NCBI GenBank assembly: GCA_030295235.1 | Contig: AP026143.1 | Span: forward strand, 682,001 to 746,000 | Length of the DNA stretch: 64,000 nucleotides | Reading direction: 5' to 3' | Origin: Fistulifera solaris | Taxonomy: Eukaryota | Shown: in pieces, positions 7,525-55,066 of the stretch | Numbering within the stretch: position 1 is the stretch's first letter | Layout of the letters: every line of letters begins with the position of its first letter | Notes under the pieces: generated by a model | Seen by the model: only the letters and a program-made list of their open reading frames with translations | What the model was told of the DNA's origin: nothing | Databases searched by the model: none | Program-made: the position numbers and the translations under genes

Positions 7525-8972
7525 ATGTCAAATCCCGAATGGGCCCTCGTGTGGCCGCGCAAACTGACGACGTCCGAAACGGAAACACTGCAACACAAAC
7601 TGCGTCCGCTCTTTGCGCATGGAGACGAAGAAGACATTCAGGATATTATTGATTACGCTATTACCGTCATTTCCAATCAAAAGGATATTCATTATATGGT
7701 AGAAGAAGTTGCGGGGATGGAATTGGAATTTTGTCCTCCCGAAGTGGCGCAGCAGATGGGGAAACATGTTTACGATTATTTGCAGGAGTTGCAACGGAAG
7801 GAAAGCGACAGTAACAACAAAAGTAATCCTACTTCTGCTCCCGAAAAGGCACACGTTGTTTCACTCCAAGTCGAATAAAGGCAATGCATTGACCATGTCG
7901 GGAGCCCTCGGGGCATCGCGAGAAGGAGGACGTGCCAAGAGCAATAACTCGACGCAGGGAGCCTTGACTGCGTCGCGCGATCGCAACGACAAAGACAAGA
8001 AACCTCCCAATCGCAATAAAGAAACAGACAAGCGAGGAGAACGACGAGATGATAAAGGACTCGCTTTTGATCGTCTGGTCGCGAAACGAAATGCGAACCG
8101 CCAAAGTAATGGCGAGGAACAGCGTGGTCCGAGAGGCCGAGGTGATGATCGAATGAGAAATAATGACGGCGGAGGAAGAAGAAATGGACCGCGGGACGGA
8201 CGAGGAGGGCGTGGCGGAGGAAGGAATGAGCGAGATTCCAGAGGACGCGGAGAAAGAGATCACCGAGGTGATCGAGAACACGGAGGGCGTGAACATAGAG
8301 ACCATGCAGGACGCGGTGAAAGACAACACGGAGGACGCGGCGAAAGACAACACGGAGGACGCAGTGAAAGAGATATGGAAGGTCGCGGAGGACGTGGTGG
8401 TAGAGGAGGAAGAGAATTCAGAGGAGGACGGAATGATGAATACGATGGTAGGGGGCATTCTGGTGCTCGTCGAAAACATGATGAAGAAGGCTATGAGGAT
8501 CCCGGCGTTAACAAACGAGTCCGAAGAGAAGAGCACAATTACTCGGAAAACTACAATGGTGGATATACCGAAAGCTACGATGAAAGTTTCGAACAAGCTC
8601 CTCACAGTGGGTACAAGCAGGCGCCTTGGCAAAGTCCGGCGTTTCGCGGCCGAGGACGCGGTCGAGGGGTCGGTTTGGTCGTGGTACTCCCGGTCGCGGA
8701 ACCTTTGGAAATGAACCCTATACGGAAAGCAGCGACGTTGATCCTGAGGCTGTTGCCGTCAATCCTTCTCCCATGGTCGCTGACACGTTTGGTCGAGGCT
8801 TTGCTGGTCGAAGTAGTTACCGAGGACGAGGACGCGGCTTTTATGCCCCCGCTTATGATCAGGTGAAAAACATGATGAAGGCTAAGACCTGGGTTCGCAA
8901 AAGGAGGGCGAAGATAATGCCAATGACGGAGAAAACGGCGGGAGCGGCGCTGGCGATTATCAGGCTGAATGA
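7525..8972 (+). CDS. RGG-rich RNA-binding protein with an N-terminal PWI/Nab2-like helical domain (frameshifted)
   Basis: N-terminal domain LQHKLRPLF..DIIDYAITVISNQKD, then long RGG/RGRG tracts and a terminal KTWVRK motif. Reading frame shifts near 7866, 8670 and 8900. Confidence 0.65.
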
Positions 8973-9446: not shown

Positions 9447-10623
9447 CTATTCTTGCAATTCCACCACCATATTGAGTAAGAGCGGTAGTAAAACGGGGAT
9501 CATTTCCTGCACGCCCTTCGGGTTTCCAGGTAAATTCGCCACAACGGTGGAAGTACCCAAAATACCCGCAGTTCCCCTCGACAAACTTGCCAGCGGCTGC
9601 AGGCGCGAACACTCCGTCGTGACAAACGCCATGAGACCGGGCAATTCCGTATCGAGCACTCGCTTCGTAGCTTCTGGAGTGACATCGCGTGAACTGAACC
9701 CAGTTCCCCCCGTCGTTAAGATCAAATGCACTTGATCTTTCCAGCTGTTCAATTGCGCTAGAATGCGTTCCATGTCGTCTGGCACAATGGCGGTTGTCAC
9801 TTCACAAAGGCTATTGTTTTGCAATACTTCTTGCACCGCCTCGACCACGGCTGGCCCCGACAAATCACCCGTCACATAGGCACCTTGACTCGCACGATCA
9901 CTCACCGTCAGTACTGCCACATGCAATGGTTCGGGTAAGTACTGAAAGGGAATGGGTGGCGGAGTAAAAGGAGGAATGGTTCGATCTTCAGGTTGAGGTG
10001 CGGGAAATGATTGTTGCTTTAAGTGTTGCGATGGTGTCAGTTGAGGACCTTTAGTATCAATATCATCAACATCTTGACAACAAACATTCGACGCTAGCGG
10101 CATATCACGTTTTTCCAGTAGTGCCGTGTCGTGCTGGGCATGCAAAGCAGTACTAGCTTCATACTTCTGCATTTGTTCCTCTGTCGCTTTTCGTTGATGT
10201 CGTTTCTTCCATTCGTCATAGGGTATTCCGTAAACATGTTCGGCGGCTTCCGCGTAACCCATTTGATTCAATGCTTGTACTGTATCCGTCGACAAGTGGC
10301 GAGATGTGTCGTCAACCAATTGTCGTGCCGTCTTGACCATCCACTATGATTGTCGGAAGAGAATTAAGGAGCCGTGTGAAGGATAAGGAAAATAGTAACC
10401 CATGCATATTCTGCTAGTGAAACGACATCGTATGAGAACTTACTTTAGCTAAACAATTACGACAAAAGCCAGAAAGTGTCATGAGATCCAAGTTTTGTAC
10501 AGCATCGGAACGCTCTTGCAAATGGTGACAGAGACTTTGAAAGGCTCCGGCTTCCAATTCTTGTAGCACCGAAGAAGGAAGCTTCTGTGCGCAGTAAGAC
10601 GAAGTAGGCGAAGCAGAAGTCAT
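9447..10623 (-). CDS. DUF1244 - molybdopterin adenylyltransferase (MogA/Cnx1G/gephyrin G-domain) fusion; intron 10344-10443
   Basis: Exon 1 ELEAGAFQSLCHHLQERSDAVQNLDLMTLSGFCRNCLAK is joined through a 100 nt GTAAGT...CATAG intron to WMVKTA...VYGIPYDEWKKRHQ (DUF1244). The C-terminal part has MogA motifs VLTVSDR, DLSGP, TTGGTGFSSRDVTPEAT, LSRGTAG and NLPGNP. Confidence 0.85.
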
Positions 10624-10947
10624 CTCTGATACCGATATTGATAGAAGGAACGAAACAATAAGGAACTTATTACTTTGAATGAAGGAAAAAGAATTATGAA
10701 GCGTCGCATCTCGCCTCGTCGACCTGGTATAATAATGCTATATTGTTCGATGTAACGCCAAGCACCCCATTCCCAGATTTTCTGGGGACCTCACACTCCC
10801 ACATTTTCTGGTGGCTTGAAGATGCACACTACCAGATGTTCTGAACAGGTGAAAATACCCGACGCCCACATTTCCTGTGCGCACGTGTGACGAAAAACCA
10901 TTTTCTGGCGACCATAACAATCAGATTATACAATGAACAAGAAACAA

Positions 10948-11801
10948 TGTATGGAGGACTGTTTGGGGACTTGCCTCCTACGAAAGAGCAGCAACAGCAA
11001 CAGCAGCACAAAGCGGGCGATGTTAGTGAGACGCCCGCGAATGCTGCACCTCTGGACGGCCGCAACAACAACGAATCGAATGATATTGCTGCAAAAGAAG
11101 CTTTGTCGAAACTAAAGAAAGAGCCGCCCTCTTTGGTCGGTCATTTGGGTACTTCTGGTACAGCGGTAGCATTTATTCCGGCAGCAGCGCGTAGAAAGAA
11201 TCTCAAACGACCGGCTACGTCCTTGTCGAGCCTTACGAAGAGCATGAAAGAGAGCCATTCTACAACTGCTGTCGGTGCATCTCTGCCGAAAATCGCGACC
11301 GTATCAAATGCGAACGTCAAATCATCATTGTCGTGCCCGTCTGAAGTTTCACAGCGTCAACAAGACCACGAAATAGAGAAAACTGAATCCAACTTGCTGG
11401 ATTCAACGTCCGTTCCACTTTGCACGGAAGATACACTAGAGGATGATGACAATCAAAACGAAGACATGAAGGAAATCTACAACGCAACGACTGCTATTAC
11501 AGATCATCACACGCATCGATCGGATCGTTATGATCCTTTTCTACCGAATGATTTGTTGGAATACTGGGAACGAAAGGCGGCAGAGGAAACGTGGCGTGCG
11601 GAGGCACAAGCCGAACAACAACTGCGTCGCAATCGCGAACAAGCGGAGCAGCTGCGGCGACAACAACAAGAACGAGAAATGCACAAACCAGAGGAACCAC
11701 CCCGGGGTCGAGGACGAGGAGGACTTTCCAATTTACCGGCGTGGATGGTGGAACAACAACGGCGACAAGACGCGCTTGGATCGGCTTCGCATGGACAATG
11801 A
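10948..11801 (+). CDS. SPF45/DRT111 N-terminal-like protein (no RRM visible)
   Basis: Starts MYGGLFGDLPP, contains YDPFLPNDLLEY followed by a coiled coil, ends RGRGRGGLSNLPAWM. Confidence 0.6.
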
Positions 11802-22017: not shown

Positions 22018-22169
22018 GGAAATACGGACAACACTTTGACACGATAGTAAAAATTAGAAGCAAACAATGCATCGACGCGATGATCGATGTAAATGCGGCG
22101 CATAGAGTCTTTCAATCAACGTCAATTGAAATGATAATAGCAATATTCGCAAGTCCTCGGTTGAACTGA

Positions 22170-23707
22170 ATGAGCGAAGAAGCATTGACCGCGTCGGCCG
22201 TTTCCTTGGCGCTGTTTCTCGGCAGTTGTGTCGCCTTTACGTTTTGGAGGAGAAACGATCACAGAACAATGCTTTCCTCGAAAGAAGTGGTTCTAGCGTT
22301 GCGCAAACGTCTCTTTTCCAAGAGTTTGAGTCTATCGTACGAGAATTCGGACCCTTTGCTCATCGTCGAGGTAGATATTCGACAATTGCAAGTATCAGCA
22401 AGCAGCATGAGATTGCATCTCACCTGTCGTCACTTCATATCACGCAGGGCCGCGGATGTTATTTAATCGACGAACGCGGACACAAATACCTCGATACACG
22501 CAACAATGTGGCTCATGTCGGACATTCTCATCCTTATGTCGTCCAAGCGATTCAACGCCAAGTGGCTCTCCTCAATACCAACACGCGATATTTGCACCCG
22601 ACGATGACACGGCTAGCCAATCGACTCGTTCGTCTATTGCCAGATCCATTGGAAGTTGTCTTTTTCTGTAACTCGGGCAGTGAAGCGAATGATTTGGCGT
22701 TGCGATTGGCGCGGGCGTATGCCAAGGGCAGTGAAAATACCATTGTCATTGATCGTGCGTATCACGGTCATACGCTCGGGACGTTACAAGTGTCTCCTTA
22801 CAAATACGATCATGGCAGTGAGCATATTCAAACAAACCCATCCCACTATTACAAAGTACCGTGTCCTGACACGTATAGAGGTATACATCGGGATCCAGCC
22901 ACAGCAGGAACTATGTATGCCAAATACGTACAAGACGCGTGTCAACACTTTCAGTCGAAAGGCGAAACGGTCCGTGCGTGGATTGTGGAAGGCGGAATGA
23001 GCGTGGCGGGAGTCATATTGCCTCCCCAAGAATACCTTTCGAAGTGTGCGGAAGCGGTCCGTGCCGCCGGTGGTCTCTACATTGCCGATGAGGTACAAAC
23101 GGGGTTGGGTCGACTGGGGTCTTGCATGTGGGCGTTCCAACACAACGATTCCGGACTCATACCGGATATTGTGACATTGGGCAAACCGTTTGGAAATGGA
23201 ATGCCCTTGGCTGCCATAGTAACAACTCGGAAGGTTGTCAGTGCATTTGAGAAGTGTGGAATCGAATATTTCAATACATTTGGTGGCAACCCTGTTTGTG
23301 CGGCTGCCGGAGTCGCTGTACTGGATGTTTTGGAGAAAGAGAACCTTCAACAGAATGCATTGGAACTTGGAACGTATCTGAAACAGTAGTTCGAACTATT
23401 ACAGTCAACAATCGAGCTCATTGGAGATGTTCGCGGCTCGGGTTTATTCCTGGGAGTCGAGTTGGTCCGCGACAGGTTATCATTGGAACCAGCTACCGCA
23501 GAAGCTTCTTTCATTTGTTCGATTCTCAAATCAAAGTACCACATTCTAACAAGTATTGACGGAAAGTATGATAACGTGATTGTGATAAAGCCTCCTATGG
23601 TATTTTCGAAGAAGAACGCGGACGATCTCATCGCCTCTTTCCGGCAAGCTGTACTAGTAGATCTACCAAGTGTGGATCTCGCGCAAGCGAGTTTCACGCC
23701 TACGTAG
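22170..23707 (+). CDS. Class-III PLP aminotransferase/phospho-lyase (ETNPPL/PHYKPL, AGXT2-like); intron 22371-22447; in-frame TAG at 23387-23389
   Basis: YLDTRNNVAHVGH, NSGSEANDLALRLA, AYHGHT, IADEVQTGLGR, PDIVTLGKPFGNGMP, YFNTFGGNP. The same frame continues after the TAG with IGDVRGSGLFLGVELV...VIKPPMVF. Confidence 0.88.
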
Positions 23708-40514: not shown

Positions 40515-42966
40515 ATGGAGAGCATCAAGCAAAGTCCTCACAGAGGACCCGCTAGCCTATACAAGGCTCTCTCTACACCTCGATCGCTATTGAGTCATCC
40601 TACGGCAGCTTCTTCACTTCTTTCGGGAAGTCACGGTCGACATCGGCGGCAACAACGAAATATTAAGAAACTGGACTTGCAACGAGCACGGCGGTACGGC
40701 ATGAAAGAAAATGCTCGTTTCAATCGCATCAAATTTACGCACGCTGGCACTGTGTTTATATACGATCCATTGAAGAACAAAGAAATCACTTCGTATCCAG
40801 CCGCGGCGGGGAAATACACCGGCTCTGCGTTTGAGAAGCCTATTCATTTGCCTCCTTATCCACTTCCCGCTCATGCGTATCATCAGTCGACGAATCGAAA
40901 AGCCTTTTTACATGAGAATCCTCGAGCCGTCACGTCGCATTCAGTCTTTTTGGTCGACATGTCTGGTTCCATGCGATGCGATGATGTCAATGGAGCACGA
41001 TGTCGTGCGGATGCCGTGTGGACGACGATCGCTCGTAATTATGTGCTGGATCCATTGAAGGAAGGAACACTTTCGTCGTCGGATGTGGTGAGCATTGTCG
41101 TGTTTCGGGACACAGCCGAAGTGTTGGTGGCACAAGCACCCGTAGATTATGTTTTGTTCAATCGGATATTGACATTTCGCGAGTACGAAACGGTGAGACC
41201 CGAAGGGCCCGGGAAATATTTACCCGCCCTGGACATGGCCGAATCGTTATTGGAATGGAACAAGCTGGGAAGTTGTGCTTTGAGTCTTTTGTTCTTTTCG
41301 GATGGCAAACCTTCGGATCGAGGAAATTTCGTGGCTCGTACCGGTCAGATTGCCGCGAAATACGGACATCGTCTTACCATGAGTTGCATAGGAATGGCCG
41401 AGCCCAGTGAAGATTTCGACACTTTACAAGCCATGGTGGAGGAAGCCCGTGACTTTGGTGTACAAGCTGTCTTCCAGCGTCCCACAATGCATTTGTCGGA
41501 GTTATCCGTGGCGATATCCAGTTTGGCTTCTTCGTTGTGTACCACCAAGACTTCAATGATCGATCGACGAACGGGCCGACGACAGATGGTTCGTACCGAT
41601 ATTGTTCATGAACGAAAAAGTTCCGTAAAGCAGGATTGGATACGACCAAACCATGAATGGAAAGTGTTTTCCAATCGCGATGTGATGAATTATGTGCTTC
41701 GCTTCTCGACGTGGGATACTCAAAGAGACGAGTTTGTTTGTAAGTGCGTCTTGAATAGACGATTTATATGCCGAGTTCGTTCTCTCACCTTTGATGGATG
41801 ACAATGGTAGGGCTGATGGACAGTCGTTGCGTTTTCTGTTACCAAACAGTGTCGGCTGGATATGAAGGTACGATTGAAACAATAGGTAAAAGTACGGTTC
41901 CAGGAGATCTTTGTCACAATTGTCAGGCTTGTTATATTTGTTCTCGCTGTAGGCGACCCCACGACCCAGCCGATTGTGCAACTTATCTTCAACACAAAAC
42001 GAACCGCAAGATGGTGGTACGGAAGGTACCATCGTTCTCGGTAGCCATGAAACATGCTGTTTTCGGACAAGGTGAAGAACGCATTGTTCATCAGTTTCGT
42101 TTCCTGGATGATGATGGCAACTTCGCTGGACCCAAGTGGGTCGCCATGAATCACGCTTCGCTTTAGAAGGCGATGATCTCTCACAGCAGTTATTGCGCTT
42201 AACGTATCACAGGGACTTTATGCGCACACAAGTCTTGGCTCAACGGTTTGCTACGGAGTTTAACCACGCGTTAGATTCCTTCCAATCCGAATCACGAAAC
42301 TGGCCGCGCTTTCGTTTCTTGGAACCACTGGTCGTAGAACTAGTTGAAGACGGGAGACATCTGGCGCACAAACAACGAGAAATCATGATTGAAGAGATGC
42401 TAGACGGAGAATATCTAAAATTCAATAACAATAATGGATTTGTCATGAGCAAAGGGAAAATGACACAAGTGCCGATGGATCCCATTCGAGAAGTCAGTGA
42501 GGATTTGGAAGACGATGGTGATGAGATAGTAGAGGTGACGAGAGATGGCAAACCTGTCGACTCGATTGTTCCGTCCCCAATGTGCGAGGAAATTATTAAC
42601 TGTGAACCTTCCACGACGACCACAAGCTCGGAAATGTGCATCGAAATTTCCAAAACGCCCGTAGTGCCGTATCGTGATTCCAGTATGGAAATGTGGATTG
42701 AAGATTTCCCGCAAGCCTTCAGTCATTTTTCGTACGAAAAGAGTGGAAAGCAGTACATCGTGGTTGATTTACAAGGAGTATTTCAGCAACATCCCGAAGG
42801 CACTTGTGAATTTATTTTAACGGATCCCGCCATTCACCGACGTGACGAACATTTGGAATCCATGGGACGGACGGATCGTGGACAAAAAGGCATGCGCGCC
42901 TTTTTGCAATCACATCGTTGCAATCGTGTGTGCCGCTTGCTGGGTCTCGTGATGAAAGAGGAGTAG
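40515..42966 (+). CDS. vWA - Cys-rich zinc finger - alpha-kinase protein; intron 41740-41810; frameshift near 42146
   Basis: vWA MIDAS FLVDMSGSM and FFSDG; CVFC..CHNCQACYICSRC..H..C; alpha-kinase FGQGEERIV, YLKFNNNNG, QAFSHFSY, VVDLQGV, LTDPAIH, HRCNRVC. Confidence 0.85.
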
Positions 42967-45471: not shown

Positions 45472-48363
45472 ATGGACGACGAATTCGGGGACGCTTCCTT
45501 TTAGACGACTTTGATGTCGAACAAGTGATTCACACTAGTCATCAGAAGCCTTCAAAACACGAGGAAACTTCCCCTGGCAACAAACGGGAGCCTATCAATG
45601 TCAGTCCTTTCGAATCAAAAGACTCTGTCAGCGAAAATACTCCTCAGAACAACAACAAACGTCTTAAAGTTGAATCGTCATCCTTCGATGACGCTCCTTC
45701 GAATTCAACAACAAATCAAAATCTTCCTTTTTCCTCTACTTCATCCGGTCTACAAGCGACACTTCATAAATACTTTGGTTATTCGGAGTTCCGTCCCGGT
45801 CAAGAACAAGTCATTGAGGCCATTGTATCGCAAAAACAAGATGTCGCCATCTTTTGGGCGACCGGTGCGGGAAAATCACTTTGTTATCAAATCCCTCCGC
45901 TGCATTTGCAACAAGTCGCGATTGTGGTCAGTCCGCTCATTTCGTTGATGCAAGATCAAGTCGCACAACTCAATGCGCGATCCGAACAACCCTTGGCGGT
46001 CTTTTTTGGGGTCGGCACAAACGGATGCTTCACTCGAACGCAGGGCATTGCAAGGACACTTTCGTTTGATTTATGTGACGCCGGAAAAAATGAGTTCTTC
46101 GTTTCCGTCGCAGTTGGTTTCATCCGGATTGGCGCATCGCATTTGTTTGATTGCCGTAGATGAAGCGCATTGTGTTTCGGAATGGGGGCACGATTTTCGT
46201 CCGGATTATCGAATGTTGGGTGATACGCTGCGCACACGGAATCCTGCCTTGCGATCCATTCCGATTCTCTCGTTGACGGCCACAGCGACGAGTCGTGTGA
46301 AGACCGACATTGTCTCGTCCTTGCAACTTCGTGCTCCGCTGATCACGCAACGATCGGTCGATCGGTCGAATTTGCGCATTTCCATACAAAGTAAAACCAA
46401 AGATGTCGCGGGGATCTTCCGAGACTGGTGTCAGAAATGGAACAAGGCTACCGATACAGTGCCCAGCACGATCATTTACGTCGCAACACGCAATCAAGTG
46501 GATCAAATTGCTGCGTTGTTGCAACAAAACTTGAGTGCGTCGGTTCGAGTCGCCGCGTATCATGCCGGACTGTCGGCGCAGCAACGGCAGACCGCGCACA
46601 TGCAGTTCTTGACGGGTCAAGTGCCGATCATTGTGGCCACGGTGGCCTTTGGTATGGGCATTGACAAACCGGACATTCGAGAAATCATTCATTATGGTCC
46701 ACCCAAGACGGTCGAAGAGTATGCACAGCAGATTGGTCGTGCCGGTCGTGATGGTTTGTCCGCGCAGTGTACCTTGATTTATTCTCCGGCCGATTTCGAC
46801 AAGTATTTGGGAGACTTTTATTTGGGACAATTGACGGAAACGGCCAAGCAAGTCACACGAGAAAACATTCAAGCTTTTAAAGCCATGTGTCAGGATCATC
46901 GATCGTGTCGAAGAAAGGTGTTGGTGGAATATTTTCAACAGACACCCGAATTTGGAGATTGGTGTGGCACGTGCGACGTTTGTTTATCTCGTGACCAGTA
47001 TGAAGGTGATCAAGAACGTGATTTCGGTGTCCCGGCGCGAATTCTTCTGACAGCGGTCCAAGCACTGAAGCGACAAGGTCTTGGCAACACTATGGCGGTG
47101 GCGAATGGGCAAGCGGTAGAAAAGTATCGATACGCGATTCAATTTCCGGGAACGCCTGCGGCTGTGCAGAATCAAATTAAGGAACTGAAAGGAGATGAGT
47201 CCAAATATACGGTCAAATACTTGAAGGAATTGTTGCCGGGTTTGGTTCAATCTGGATACATTGCGGAATCAACCGAATCCAAACAATTATCAGGCTTTGC
47301 GAAAAGGTGGACCGTTTACGATATCACACCGCGTGGTCGCCAGGTGTTGCAAAATCGCAATACACCCATCTTACTTCCAGTCCCTCAATCGGTTCGTGAT
47401 CAAGAGAAACAAGAAGACGAACGACGGCAGAGAGTACTGAAGGAACTGTCCAACAGAGGCTTGAAGAAAGAAACGCTTCCCGAAAGCGAAGTCAATGCTG
47501 GAGACGGAACTGTGATTCGGGCCTATTCCAAATGGTACAGTTTCATTGAAGGCGCTCGACGGCATTCTGAACAACGCGCGACGGATCTGGAAGATTTATT
47601 GAAGTTGATCGACAACTGGCGGGCGGAAACAGCCATCAAGCTTCGGATCGCGCCGGCCTCTGTCCTAGCGGAACATTTGATGGTTTCGCTCGCCTATTCT
47701 GTTGCATCGTTACCACAGCATGTGACTTTGAATCGGGACATGGTCTTGGCGGCTGGTGTACGTACCATTACAGTAGACGACTTGGTGGCATCGTGTTTAC
47801 GTTGGCGAGAAAAGAGCCAGTTAGCGCAACCGTCTGAAGGTACTGTCGGTAACACAAAGTCTATGGTTCTAAGGACCATTCAATGTAAAAAATGGGAATT
47901 CGCAGTGTACAAACCTCAGAAGAAGACAGGCAAAGCAACCTGGGAAAACTATTTTGATCGATTCTATGCCGGGGAAAATCCTCTCGCGATTGCAATGGCC
48001 CCAGGAGATGGGAAAAAGCCTATTCAAGTACAAACAGTCGTTGCTCATATTTTAGAGGGTTGCTCGTTTGGTCGAGAAGTTGATCTGGAACGCCTTGCTG
48101 AATTCATGCCGCCACCGAACGAAAAGCAATGGGAAGAACTCCGCGCAGCTGAGCTTGCTACTGGTATGGATGTGTGCGCAGACCCCGAAACGAGCGGCCG
48201 AAACGGGGACAAGTTCACCATGACAGAATTTTTGAAGCCTATCGTAGGTGAGAAAACTGAAAACATGGATAGGGCAGTGTTCGGTCAGTGGTGTAACTAC
48301 CTGAAATGGTACTTGACACTCCGTCGAGCGGGCTATGAGCCAAAATTTGTGGACAGCATTTAG
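45472..48363 (+). CDS. RecQ-family (WRN-like) DNA helicase with HRDC and C-terminal HTH; frameshifts near 45500 and 46005
   Basis: FGYSEFRPGQ, ATGAGKSLCYQIP, VVSPLISLMQDQV, AVDEAHCVSEWGHDFRPDY, VATVAFGMGIDKPDIR, QQIGRAGRDG, CRR..CGTCDVC. Confidence 0.92.
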
Positions 48364-50890: not shown

Positions 50891-52099
50891 CTACGCAGTG
50901 GAAGGCTCACGAATGTAAGCATCAATGTCAACAGGAGCCCAAACGTTCGTCCCTGCACCATCCTGAAGCTCAATTCGGTACGCATTGCCTTCGTCCCAGT
51001 GCTCCAAAACTTTTCCTTTTACAAATTCGCCCACATTGGCTTCAATCGTAGCACCCACCTCAAATCGCAAAGGACGATCGACTTTGCAAGCTAGAAAAAG
51101 CCTTCGCGATACATGTCGTGATCGAGATTCTTGCCGATGAACACAAAGCGCGATTCGCGCTTCTCATTCTTGCCCCAACAATACTCACTAAAGCCTCCGG
51201 TGAACATCATACCGACGCCTTGAAAGACGTACTTTTGATCCATCCCCTTGGCGGAAATTACGCCTTTGTAACGGTACAAGTTAGCACCGTCTGTGCGAAT
51301 TAATCGATCGACCCAGTTTTCGAGCATAACAAAGTTCACGTCTCCTTCTACTTTGACTCCGACAGACGAAACCGTCTTGTCGTGCTCATGCTCTCCGTCT
51401 TCACTCAAGAACTCGGAATCAAATTCAAGAACACGCTTTATTTCGGATGCTTGTCGATTGAGGACGTCCTTGGGAGAAATGACCGAGTTCTGCGTGCGTT
51501 GTATAGGGGCCGTGGGATTGATCTTCCGAAGCTCTACTTCAATCTTTTCCAGCTCGGCATCTGTTGACAAGTCGATCTTGTTCAACAAGATCTTGTCAGC
51601 AAACGCCACTTGCTCCACGGCTTCATTCTCGGCTCCTTCCGGCTTGTCCTCCGCGAGTCGTTCCAAGATGAACTTGCTGTCTATTACCGTGATGACCGAA
51701 TCGAGGCGATACTGTTGGCTATATTTTTTTCTAAAAAGAAAGTCGTCTCGATGATGACACCATTGAACTGGGTGACTCGCTCGTACAGAGATTGGAGGGC
51801 CTTGACGAGATCCCCGCGTACGGTACAATAAATGCACCCATTTATCACTTCAATGATTTCTTCGTCAGCGTTCTCACTGAGAGTCGTTTCATCGATACCG
51901 ACTTCACCAACTTCATTCTCAATGACAGCGAATTTCATTCCGTGTGCTGTGTCATTCAGTATATTATTGAGTAGAGTCGATTTGCCAGATCCGAGAAAGC
52001 CCGTAATGACAGTGACGGGAATGATCGGCGAGCCATTTTCGACGCTGCGTCGTTGTGATGTTCGTTTGTCTTTTGCTTCTTGTTGGAGCTGTAGCGCAT
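50891..52099 (-). pseudogene. Degenerate CobW/COG0523 paralog
   Basis: Highly similar to 53287-54533 but lacks GLADPAPVCQ (~30 bp deletion near 51740), has GCIYC instead of GCICC, and has frameshifts near 52050, 51730 and 51095. Confidence 0.7.
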
Positions 52100-53286: not shown

Positions 53287-54533
53287 TTACGCAGTCAAAG
53301 GCTTGCGAATGTAAGCATCAATGTCGACAGGAGCCCAAACATTCGTCTTCTTGCCGTCTTGGAGCTCAATGCGGTACGCATTTCCTTCATCCCAGTGTCC
53401 CAGCACCTTGCCTTTCACGAACTTGCCCACGTTTGCTTCGACTGTAGCACCTACAGCGAAGCGCAGGGGGTGATCGACTTTGCAAGCTAGAAAGCCTTCG
53501 CGATACATGTCGTGATCGAGATTCTTGCCGATGAACACAAAGCGCGATTCGCGCTTTTCATTCTGCCCCAACAATACTCACTAAAGCCTCCGGTGAACAT
53601 CATGCCGACACCTTGAAAGACGAACTTCTGATCCATACCCTTGACAGAAATGACGCCCTTGTAGCGGTACAAGTTAGCACCGTCTCCACCGATCAAACGA
53701 TCGATCCAGCTTTCGAGCATGGTCATGTTGACGTCGCCTTCCACCTTGACTCCGACAGACGAAACAGTCTTGTCGTGTTCATGCTCTCCGTCTTCATTTA
53801 GGAACTCGGGGTCAAAATCGAGAACGCGTTTGAGCTCGAATGCTTGAAGGTTGAGGACGTCCTTGGGGGAGATGACCGAATGTTTCGTTCGCTGAATCGG
53901 AGCGGTAGGATTTATGGTACGGAGCTTGGCTTCAATCTTTTCCAGCTCGGCATCTGTCGACAAGTCGATCTTGTTCAATAAGATCTTGTCGGCGAACGCC
54001 ACTTGCTCGACGGCTTCGTTCTCGGCTCCCTCTGGCTTTTCTTCCGCGAGTCGTTCCAAGATGTACTTGCTGTCGACTACGGTAATCACTGAATCGAGGC
54101 GATATTTCTTACCAATGTCTTCGTCGACAAAGAATGTTTGGCAGACGGGGGCAGGATCTGCCAGTCCAGTCGTCTCGATGATAACACCATTGAATTGAGA
54201 GACACGTTCGTACAAAGACTTGAGGGCCTTGACGAGATCGCCGCGCACCGTGCAGCAGATACAACCATTCATGACTTCGATGATTTCCTCGTCGACATTC
54301 TCGCTCAGAGTCTTCTCATCCACGCCAACTTCACCGAATTCGTTCTCAATCACGGCAAATTTCATCCCGTGTGTTGTGTCATTCAAGATGGAATTCAGAA
54401 GGGTCGTTTTCCCGGAACCCAGGAACCCGGTGATGATTGTAACCGGGATAATGGGTGCTTTGCCGTTCTTCCACATGCCGTTGGTATGATTCACGTCTTT
54501 CTTTTGCTTCTTGTTAGGTTTGTTATCGACCAT
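53287..54533 (-). CDS. CobW/COG0523 (ZNG1-like) G3E GTPase metallochaperone with an extra C-terminal beta domain; frameshift near 53563
   Basis: TIITGFLGSGKTT, ENEFGEVGVD, GCICC, ETTGLADP, EQVAFAD, NKID, HEHD, YRYKG. The paralog has GGCAAGAAT where this copy has GGCAGAAT. Tail LRFAVGATVEANVG..WDEGNAYRIEL..VWAPVD. Confidence 0.92.
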
Positions 54534-55066
54534 GATGATTGTTTTGTGGGGGTTTATCAGGGAAAATTTGGTTGGTGAATGCAATGGTGAATGAGGCTTT
54601 TTATGAATCGAAGAGCCTATTACATAAAGCCTGATTGTTGATCAGGCTCTCCAAAAATAGCTTGAAAAGGCTGAAAGCATGGCCTCGTGCTGTAGTCAAC
54701 GACATTAGTATTGGTACCCAAGTATTATCGGCAATAGACTAGAGTAACCAGTGACGTGGTTTACTTGTACGAGTAGTTACTGGGCGTAGCTCTTTATTTG
54801 CTCCACCTGCCTTGCCGCCTACGGCTCACTTTGCTGATGTTTCCAGACCCGTTGAAAAGAGCCTATTCGTGACGAGAAAAATAGACTAACAATGGTTTGG
54901 CAAAGATCCAAGATCCACGATGAGTTTCCCACTTTTGGTGTCGATGGGGTTACGAGTTAGCTGAATGCTTTGTCCAGCTGTTTGAGTAGGCAACCCCTAA
55001 ATGGGAATAGCTTTCTTTTGTCATTGTCCAGTTTTCCAAGGCATACTGGTAGCGCTTTTCTTCTTT

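Follow-up and report, generated by a model that had tools for sequence, protein, structure and literature searches.

A DUF1244 domain ahead of the molybdopterin adenylyltransferase domain in the diatom Fistulifera solaris: a fused gene and a tentative link of the DUF1244 family to pterins

The 64,000-nucleotide stretch of Fistulifera solaris contig AP026143.1 analysed here (the window) carries, on its minus strand, a gene in which a DUF1244 domain and a linker with a Cys-Cys pair precede a G domain of the MogA/Cnx1G type, the domain that adenylylates molybdopterin (MPT) in the synthesis of the molybdenum cofactor (Moco). The fusion is one nuclear gene of this naviculoid pennate diatom, and we consider the pairing of DUF1244 with the G domain almost certainly genuine. 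The product is best explained, judging from its sequence, as the putative MPT adenylyltransferase of F. solaris, i.e., the G half of its molybdenum insertase. The role of the additional domain is more tentative. The common thread of the contexts in which DUF1244 is found appears to be pterins rather than Moco or metals, and we lean, with due caution, towards DUF1244 being an accessory for reduced pterin intermediates. By limiting nitrate reductase, the supply of Moco also limits how diatoms and other marine algae grow on nitrate, and the handover of the oxidation-sensitive, metal-free MPT to the insertase is one of its poorly understood steps. A cysteine-bearing domain attached to the G domain across algal lineages offers a concrete, mutable handle on this handover.

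After splicing, the gene (Table 1) encodes a protein of 358 amino acids, 332 of which are identical to residues of an annotated F. solaris protein of 356 amino acids (P0002), with one two-residue gap between them; the database annotation of P0002 reads molybdopterin adenylyltransferase and nothing more. The intron ends in a pyrimidine-rich tract followed by CATAG, its GC content is 40% versus 49% in the exons, and if it were kept, the frame of exon 1 would meet a stop after nine codons. Gene calls in the databases often stumble at this place. The nearest entry (P0001, 97% identity) begins at exon 2, P0003 (88% identity) reads through the intron, and on other diatom-like contigs many short calls of 60-100 amino acids end right after ...GFCRNC[LM]AKV, which is the pattern expected if an intron at this position is conserved or widespread, as it seems to be. 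Such split calls (P0001 and the short ones ending after exon 1) are the observations that could favour an annotation artefact, namely that a small DUF1244 gene and a neighbouring MogA gene have been linked by an intron that does not exist, but this is extremely improbable: neither exon holds a whole DUF1244 domain, the splice signals are canonical and the phase exact, and both the annotated orthologue P0002 and transcript-derived open reading frames (ORFs) of other diatoms run through the junction. Two of the latter, P0085 and P0116, are marked 'type:complete' and encode DUF1244 and the G domain in a single frame. Since the intron lies within the DUF1244 domain, two independent genes are ruled out. 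The in-frame join across a 100 nt intron proposed in the original prediction is thereby borne out.

Table 1. Features of the DUF1244-G fusion gene and of other elements of the window (positions are those of the window)
Feature	Position	Strand	Remarks
DUF1244-G fusion gene	9447..10623	minus	ATG at 10623-10621, stop codon at 9449-9447
Exon 1	10444..10623	minus	60 codons; N-terminal half of DUF1244; ends ...GFCRNCLAK
Intron	10344..10443	minus	100 nt; GTAAGT...CATAG; phase 0; inside the DUF1244 domain
Exon 2	9447..10343	minus	298 codons plus stop; starts WMVKTA...; C-terminal half of DUF1244, linker, G domain
DUF1244 (SMc04008-like) homology region	10146..10563	minus	approximately residues 21-126; broken by the intron
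CxxC of DUF1244	10453..10464	minus	Cys54-Arg-Asn-Cys57; read from the sequence
Linker motif S-N-V-C-C-Q-D	10071..10091	minus	Cys148-Cys149; Cys-Cys codons 10077-10082
G domain (predicted MogA/Cnx1G-type MPT adenylyltransferase)	9465..9926	minus	exon-2 residues 140-293
CobW/COG0523-type GTPase ORF	51091-51849	minus	metallochaperone family; neighbours the next ORF
CobW/COG0523-type GTPase ORF	53487-54641	minus	metallochaperone family; neighbours the preceding ORF
Long RGG/RG- and acidic-repeat ORF	7703-8866	plus	low complexity; no Pfam match; equally long opposite-strand frames

The two exons were scanned separately against Pfam, with cut-offs of 27 bits for DUF1244 and 26.6 bits for MoCF_biosynth, and both matched DUF1244 (PF06844) above the cut-off: exon 1 over profile positions 1-19 (36.1 bits) and exon 2 over positions 30-66 (43.4 bits). 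The unsplit orthologue P0002 matches the same profile as a single stretch with 79 bits. Its residues 21-126 are homologous to the solved bacterial DUF1244 proteins along their full length (E 7.6e-16 for 3fyb, 1.1e-14 for 2o35), and a sequence features search of the ESM Atlas with residues 1-150 returned bacterial DUF1244 as the nearest clusters at 0.77-0.79, a lead-level score. The assignment of the N-terminal part to DUF1244, made earlier from the sequence without any search, is thus well founded. The CxxC motif is invariant in all 26 full-length diatom orthologues and in all seven bacterial-type proteins compared; in the latter, its two cysteines are the only ones in the chain. The bacterial-type proteins have 40 invariant columns among them, and the CxxC motif (...GFCRNCL...) together with W, YG and WK columns is common to them and the 26 diatom proteins. 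The bacterial proteins are about 100 amino acids long and occur stand-alone or at the C-terminus of another enzyme, whereas the diatom copy is N-terminal, carries roughly 15 or more inserted residues between its two Pfam-matched halves and precedes a Cys-Cys motif that the bacterial proteins lack. The bacterial donor of the eukaryotic domain was also sought: 30 eukaryotic copies were compared by BLAST with the bacterial copies from each context (FGase, GCS2, PurD, FolM/FolX and other). The best scores differ by only a few bits and no group stands out, so that no specific donor lineage can be named.

The G domain is intact, as was originally proposed. Exon 2 matches MoCF_biosynth (PF00994) over positions 1-142 of 144 with 83.8 bits and reaches the TIGR00177 domain model (99 bits, cut-off 85.35). 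The bacterial equivalog NF006932 'molybdopterin adenylyltransferase' is not reached (113.4 bits, cut-off 158); that model represents bacterial MogA, and the domain's best match among solved structures is plant Cnx1G, with which exon-2 residues 140-293 align end to end (Arabidopsis 1o8q, residues 6-159, E 7.7e-35). In a Foldseek comparison the AlphaFold2 (AF2) model of P0002 (mean pLDDT 78.3) gave target-normalised TM scores of 0.86-0.88 with 1uux, 1o8q and 1eav at 44% identity. The LTVSDRA, VPD, TTGGTG..RDVTPEAT, LSR and NLPGNP columns are invariant or nearly so in the 26 orthologues. Among them, the VPD(D/E) and RDVTPEAT motifs are aligned with those of Cnx1G, residues P246, D247, R277 and D278 are the same in all 26 proteins, and the aspartates of the two motifs are taken to correspond to catalytic Asp49 and Asp82 of Escherichia coli MogA. 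In Cnx1 and MogA, the G domain with Mg-ATP turns MPT into MPT-AMP, which the E domain then uses for the insertion of molybdate. The first of these reactions is expected here as well, the diatom domain having, as far as its sequence goes, everything that a predicted MPT adenylyltransferase should have.

Fold, motif columns and full-length alignment are thus common to the diatom domain and the G domains of Cnx1, gephyrin and MogA, but relative to Cnx1 and gephyrin the diatom protein is without an E domain and has about 195 additional N-terminal residues, consisting of DUF1244 and the Cys-Cys linker. To our knowledge, no characterised G domain carries these two elements. Neither exon matches a MoeA (MoeA_N/MoeA_C) Pfam family, hence the gene does not encode a fused E-G insertase, and no MoeA match was found among the 27 window ORFs of at least 239 amino acids that were scanned. 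The original prediction had treated fusion of the G domain to MoeA as typical for eukaryotes, and this needs correcting for algae. The passages available from two recent papers describe E and G domains as separate in some algae and protists (PMC13262936) and MoeA of Bacillariophyta as lacking a fused MogA (PMC11733289). A diatom G domain without an E domain is therefore expected, and the E domain is presumably encoded elsewhere.

The linker between the two domains contains the further pair of cysteines (NVCCQD) that had been pointed out in the original prediction, and this pair is as constant as the domains it joins. A [SDN]VC[CSA] motif is present in each of the 120 best homologues listed, S145, V147, C148 and C149 are invariant in the 26 full-length diatom orthologues, and at least one linker cysteine occurs in 200 of the 201 proteins examined here with DUF1244 upstream of a G domain, although these are mostly from diatoms and such counts ignore kinship and hence are not phylogenetically independent. 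The sole exception, P0273, is a gene model with virtually no linker. In the AF2 model of P0002 the segment 142-171, with the Cys-Cys pair inside, is predicted to be disordered.

The fusion is found far beyond this genome. The 120 best homologues listed for exon 2, whose named sources include Fistulifera, Nitzschia, Mayamaea, Amphora and a Synedra-like strain, all contain both PF00994 and PF06844. An exhaustive search with the G domain alone gave 5747 cluster representatives at E <= 0.001, and among the best 150 of these, 65 have DUF1244, 23 have MoeA without DUF1244 and 62 have neither, several of the last being N-terminally truncated calls which still show the linker motif. Likewise, those short DUF1244-only eukaryote-like matches that were inspected resemble truncated models of DUF1244-G fusions. 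The other direction of search was taken with a profile of the seven bacterial-type DUF1244 proteins, which scored 1909 longer proteins at E <= 0.001 among 8000 candidates; the 120 of them that were listed were sorted into architectures by a local tally, and Pfam checks were made on 25 proteins, 21 of them from the 120. The commonest long form of the DUF1244 family in this list is FGase-DUF1244 (72 of the 120), followed by one or more DUF1244 copies before a G domain (24, including centric Thalassiosira, Skeletonema and Cyclotella with two copies), MoeA-DUF1244-DUF1244-G (9, including the green alga Cymbomonas tetramitiformis), FolB-DUF1244 (5, from five fusion clusters), PurD-DUF1244 (2) and DUF1244-G-DUF1244-MoeA (1). 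In the remaining seven, no second domain was seen locally, and Pfam identified a glyoxalase domain and a flavoprotein fragment in two of them. DUF1244 is therefore not exclusively a stand-alone protein. The presence of the same fusion in other diatoms and algae, which the original prediction had left to be checked, is in turn well documented. In every eukaryotic architecture seen, a DUF1244 stands directly N-terminal to the G domain. The retention of the fusion in at least four architectures, far outside the F. solaris genome, argues for a genuine, selected pairing in eukaryotes. Three diatom orthologues (P0074, P0075 and P0082) begin with a partial extra DUF1244, corresponding to its C-terminal half, ahead of a complete copy; they could represent two-copy forms that are truncated, or stages on the way from the single to the tandem state or back.

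Two copies of DUF1244 in one chain occur in 34 of the listed long forms, 10 of which also have the dimerising E domain, and the predicted structures point in a similar direction. In the AF2 model of the single-copy P0002, the conserved stretch before CxxC is poorly modelled (10-residue blocks with mean pLDDT of 70 and 49), while these stretches have pLDDT of 90-96 in the model of P0253, a Skeletonema protein with two copies, where the DUF1244 pair is confidently predicted throughout. Since different alignments underlie the two models, the comparison is weak support and can be called only consistent with a two-copy unit. In both models CxxC lies at the start of a helix, and the fold predicted for DUF1244 is all-helical and not that of thioredoxin. 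In the portion of PMC2954204 that was available, the SCOP curators place the SMc04008-like family, i.e., DUF1244, among interlocked obligate oligomers, which are globular and built from interlocking non-compact subunits. We infer that the working unit of DUF1244 is helical and made of two copies, which would form an interlocked dimer or, when in tandem, a pseudo-dimer.

If DUF1244 served Moco synthesis in general, Moco genes might be sought beside its bacterial genes, a check that the original prediction had suggested. We analysed the 80 best-matching bacterial loci out of at least 592 in species-representative genomes, each with flanks of 8 kb (median); the neighbours were counted by local tblastn and named from Pfam and NCBIfam. 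MogA was found beside DUF1244 in none of the 80 loci and MoeA in one, in Azospirillum (L001), where it is convergent and 172 nt away; bacterial DUF1244 is therefore not a Moco-operon gene. The dominant neighbour is instead a hydrolase of the FGase family, upstream on the same strand in 31 loci and within 300 nt in 17 of them. GapR follows downstream in 27 loci, pyruvate kinase is present in 21, a YbdK-type carboxylate-amine ligase in 11 (always upstream by no more than 300 nt), PurD in four and a FolB-family gene in three, and a Moco-binding subunit of the xanthine dehydrogenase type was seen near DUF1244 only in one cluster of three loci. In Alphaproteobacteria the order pyruvate kinase (opposite strand)-DUF1036-FGase family-DUF1244-GapR recurs (e.g., L017:7155-7979, L033:8574-8843). 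The Azospirillum locus, the sole Moco-related context among the 80, has a DUF2478, DUF4213 and DUF364 fusion protein upstream of DUF1244 and the convergent MoeA downstream (L001:6749-7981, L001:8484-9620).

A connection with pterins emerged from Pseudomonadaceae. All six loci from this family (L067, L070, L072, L075, L076 and L078) have, on one strand, the order SDR-(GTP cyclohydrolase I-FolB family)-DUF1244-HopJ, the two genes in brackets lying between the SDR and DUF1244 in three of the six, and in five an ABM-domain protein stands ahead of the SDR. The gaps around DUF1244 are short, from 2 to about 115 nt. Two SDRs that were scanned reach the NCBIfam equivalog for dihydromonapterin reductase FolM (333 and 303.6 bits, cut-off 249), and all six contain the TGxxxRxG motif, whose arginine, according to a passage of PMC13259868, is specific for the pteridine reductases. 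In L076, the FolB-family gene reaches the equivalog for FolX, dihydroneopterin triphosphate 2'-epimerase, with 199 bits (cut-off 152), and so does the FolB-DUF1244 fusion P0316 with 172.8 bits. FolX and FolM are the enzymes that make tetrahydromonapterin, as stated in an excerpt of PMC3405516 that cites Pribat et al. 2010. Thus, at least two unrelated settings connect DUF1244 with pterin enzymes. The pseudomonad genes resemble the diatom case in that DUF1244 is co-oriented with and tightly spaced behind the folM-folE-folX genes and in some bacteria is fused to FolX. They differ in that the pterin is another one, without dithiolene or molybdenum, and in that DUF1244 is there a separate protein or a C-terminal domain. 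In the literature searched, no published role for DUF1244 in the tetrahydromonapterin pathway was found. The HopJ-family gene (PF08888) follows DUF1244 by 2-11 nt on the same strand in all six loci (e.g., L076:8291-8632); it may belong to a folM-folE-folX-DUF1244 pterin operon and not be an effector, as the family name suggests.

The original prediction had taken the fusion as a sign that DUF1244 handles metals or pterins in Moco synthesis, and it is the pterin part that gained from the FolX-DUF1244 fusions and the folM-(folE-folX) operon. The pterin ring is the sole chemical feature common to the G-domain, FolX and FolM contexts, and the bacterial partners handle no dithiolene; for these two reasons we prefer the pterin to a metal as the object of the domain. 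In such an accessory role, the invariant CxxC would perform a chemistry common to the whole DUF1244 family. An algal G domain would have captured DUF1244, with the Cys-Cys of the linker added. Standing just upstream of the G domain in eukaryotes, DUF1244 would receive the oxidation-sensitive MPT, shield it or present it to the adenylylation site, and the Cys-Cys, specific to eukaryotes, would be adapted to the MPT dithiolene. A bolder version, possible in our opinion though on the whole doubtful, is that DUF1244 is a pterin-binding domain, unrecognised so far, which chaperones or protects its ligand in two unrelated pathways: that of tetrahydromonapterin in Gammaproteobacteria (FolM, FolE, FolX) and that of Moco in algae (G domain). 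The additional Cys-Cys arm of eukaryotes would then hold the MPT dithiolene, directly or via a metal, between MPT synthase and adenylylation. If true, this would fill a long-open gap in how free MPT is shielded and handed over.

Several observations weigh against a role in pterin handling. The strongest concerns the commonest bacterial partners: neither the FGase family, the YbdK-type ligase and PurD nor the syntenic GapR and pyruvate kinase are known as pterin enzymes. The core role of DUF1244 may thus be more general, for instance in redox chemistry or in regulation, or DUF1244 may be a promiscuous domain. The number of different partners leads to the same concern, since promiscuity would weaken any inference drawn from a Rosetta-stone fusion. 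The near absence of MogA and MoeA from the bacterial loci speaks against a Moco association. These loci were the highest-scoring ones for a profile of alpha- and gammaproteobacterial proteins and were not drawn at random. One evolutionary event may lie behind both the Pseudomonadaceae operon and the FolX fusions, and one or a few behind the eukaryotic fusions. The Cys-Cys linker is predicted to be disordered in both AF2 models, P0002 and P0253, and among the 27 window ORFs scanned against Pfam no Moco, nitrate-assimilation or pterin gene lies beside the fusion gene.

Among the alternatives, metal handling stands best, although we hold it to be unlikely. The CxxC, two per dimer, and the Cys-Cys pair would bind Cu(I), zinc or an iron-sulfur cluster and deliver a metal to the MPT dithiolene, or remove it, before molybdenum is inserted. 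The copper's physiological role in Moco synthesis is itself disputed. The cysteines are what one would expect of such a function, CxxC being invariant in all bacterial and eukaryotic members examined and a linker cysteine, usually as Cys-Cys, being nearly universal; moreover, the title of the closest solved structure, 1uux of Cnx1G, speaks of a link between molybdenum and copper metabolism, and in the one bacterial locus with MoeA the DUF364 and DUF4213 domains encoded upstream have the Pfam description 'putative heavy-metal chelation'. This must be set against the other bacterial partners (FolX, FolM, FGase family, PurD and YbdK-type ligase), which act on molecules free of dithiolene, against the presence of only two cysteines per chain in the bacterial proteins, and against the Pfam scan, in which neither exon matched a metal-binding family (e.g., HMA/Atx1-like) at E values up to 1.

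A thiol-disulfide module, in which cycling of CxxC keeps reduced pterins or the dithiolene reduced or switches the fused enzyme with the redox state of the cell, appears rather improbable. Passages of PMC13259868 and PMC7687042 describe pterins and MPT as redox-labile, the invariant CxxC is placed at a helix start in both models, and a chemistry of this kind would suit many enzyme partners. Nevertheless, the predicted fold is not that of thioredoxin, and no redox partner was seen in the bacterial neighbourhoods.

We see still less reason to regard DUF1244 as a device for assembly or anchoring, in which its dimer would cross-link G trimers into a lattice, as the E dimer does in gephyrin, or an S-acylated Cys-Cys would tether the enzyme to a membrane or to nitrate reductase. 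The description of the family as obligate interlocked oligomers (PMC2954204) would fit such a role, as would the position of Cys-Cys in a linker predicted to be disordered; according to excerpts of PMC11733289, gephyrin forms networks by coupling trimerisation of the G domain with dimerisation of the E domain, and diatoms are without the E-G fusion. The 34 listed two-copy chains (24 with DUF1244 copies before G, nine MoeA-DUF1244-DUF1244-G and one DUF1244-G-DUF1244-MoeA), on the contrary, would satisfy the dimer internally and cross-link nothing, and 10 of them already contain the dimerising E domain; for this reason we prefer an intrinsic role of the domain to pure cross-linking. The bacterial FolX and FGase fusions would also be left unexplained.

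Equally remote is the notion of a promiscuous small domain without a specific Moco role, which was fixed once in an algal ancestor and kept neutrally or for a generic benefit such as stability or solubility. It draws on the five or more different fusion and adjacency partners in bacteria and on the nearly equal scores of the eukaryotic copies against every bacterial context group. The very high conservation (the 40 invariant columns of the seven bacterial-type proteins, and C54, C57, C148 and C149 in the 26 diatom proteins) does not fit such a passive passenger, nor do the near-universal linker cysteine and the placement of DUF1244 immediately N-terminal to G in four architectures.

Public databases already contain DUF1244-G proteins as a family, and the orthologue from F. 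solaris has an annotation. No function for DUF1244 (PF06844, SMc04008, IPR010652, IPR023163) is given in the literature found, and recent papers on the evolution of the Mo-insertase domains do not name it. A functional lead for DUF1244, including the link to FolX and FolM, thus appears to be unpublished within the literature searched. It would be the first for a bacterial family that is very highly conserved and of which two structures are solved, tying it to pterin metabolism via FolX, FolM and FolE. A paper of 2026 mentions, in the legend of its S1 Table, an unexplained N-terminal extension of about 150 residues on the separate G domains of Micromonas commoda, Diacronema lutheri and Chrysochromulina tobinii (PMC13262936); the paper does not say what the extension is, and it has no diatom among its cases. 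Size and position fit DUF1244 plus linker, and we infer from them that the extension is probably the DUF1244 module. If so, the unassigned residues on these algal G domains would be explained.

As for the surroundings of the fusion gene, about 330 nt (10624-10950) separate its ATG from a divergent ORF, which has its first ATG near 10947, a Gln-rich N-terminus and no Pfam match; the arrangement suggests that this interval is a shared bidirectional promoter region. Further away, the two CobW/COG0523-type ORFs are probably tandem paralogues. The other genes of the window (e.g., 42115-42966, 45949-48363, 22130-23389) are ordinary nuclear ones, among them those for an alpha-kinase, a RecQ-type helicase, a class-III aminotransferase, ribose-5-phosphate isomerase and KTI12.

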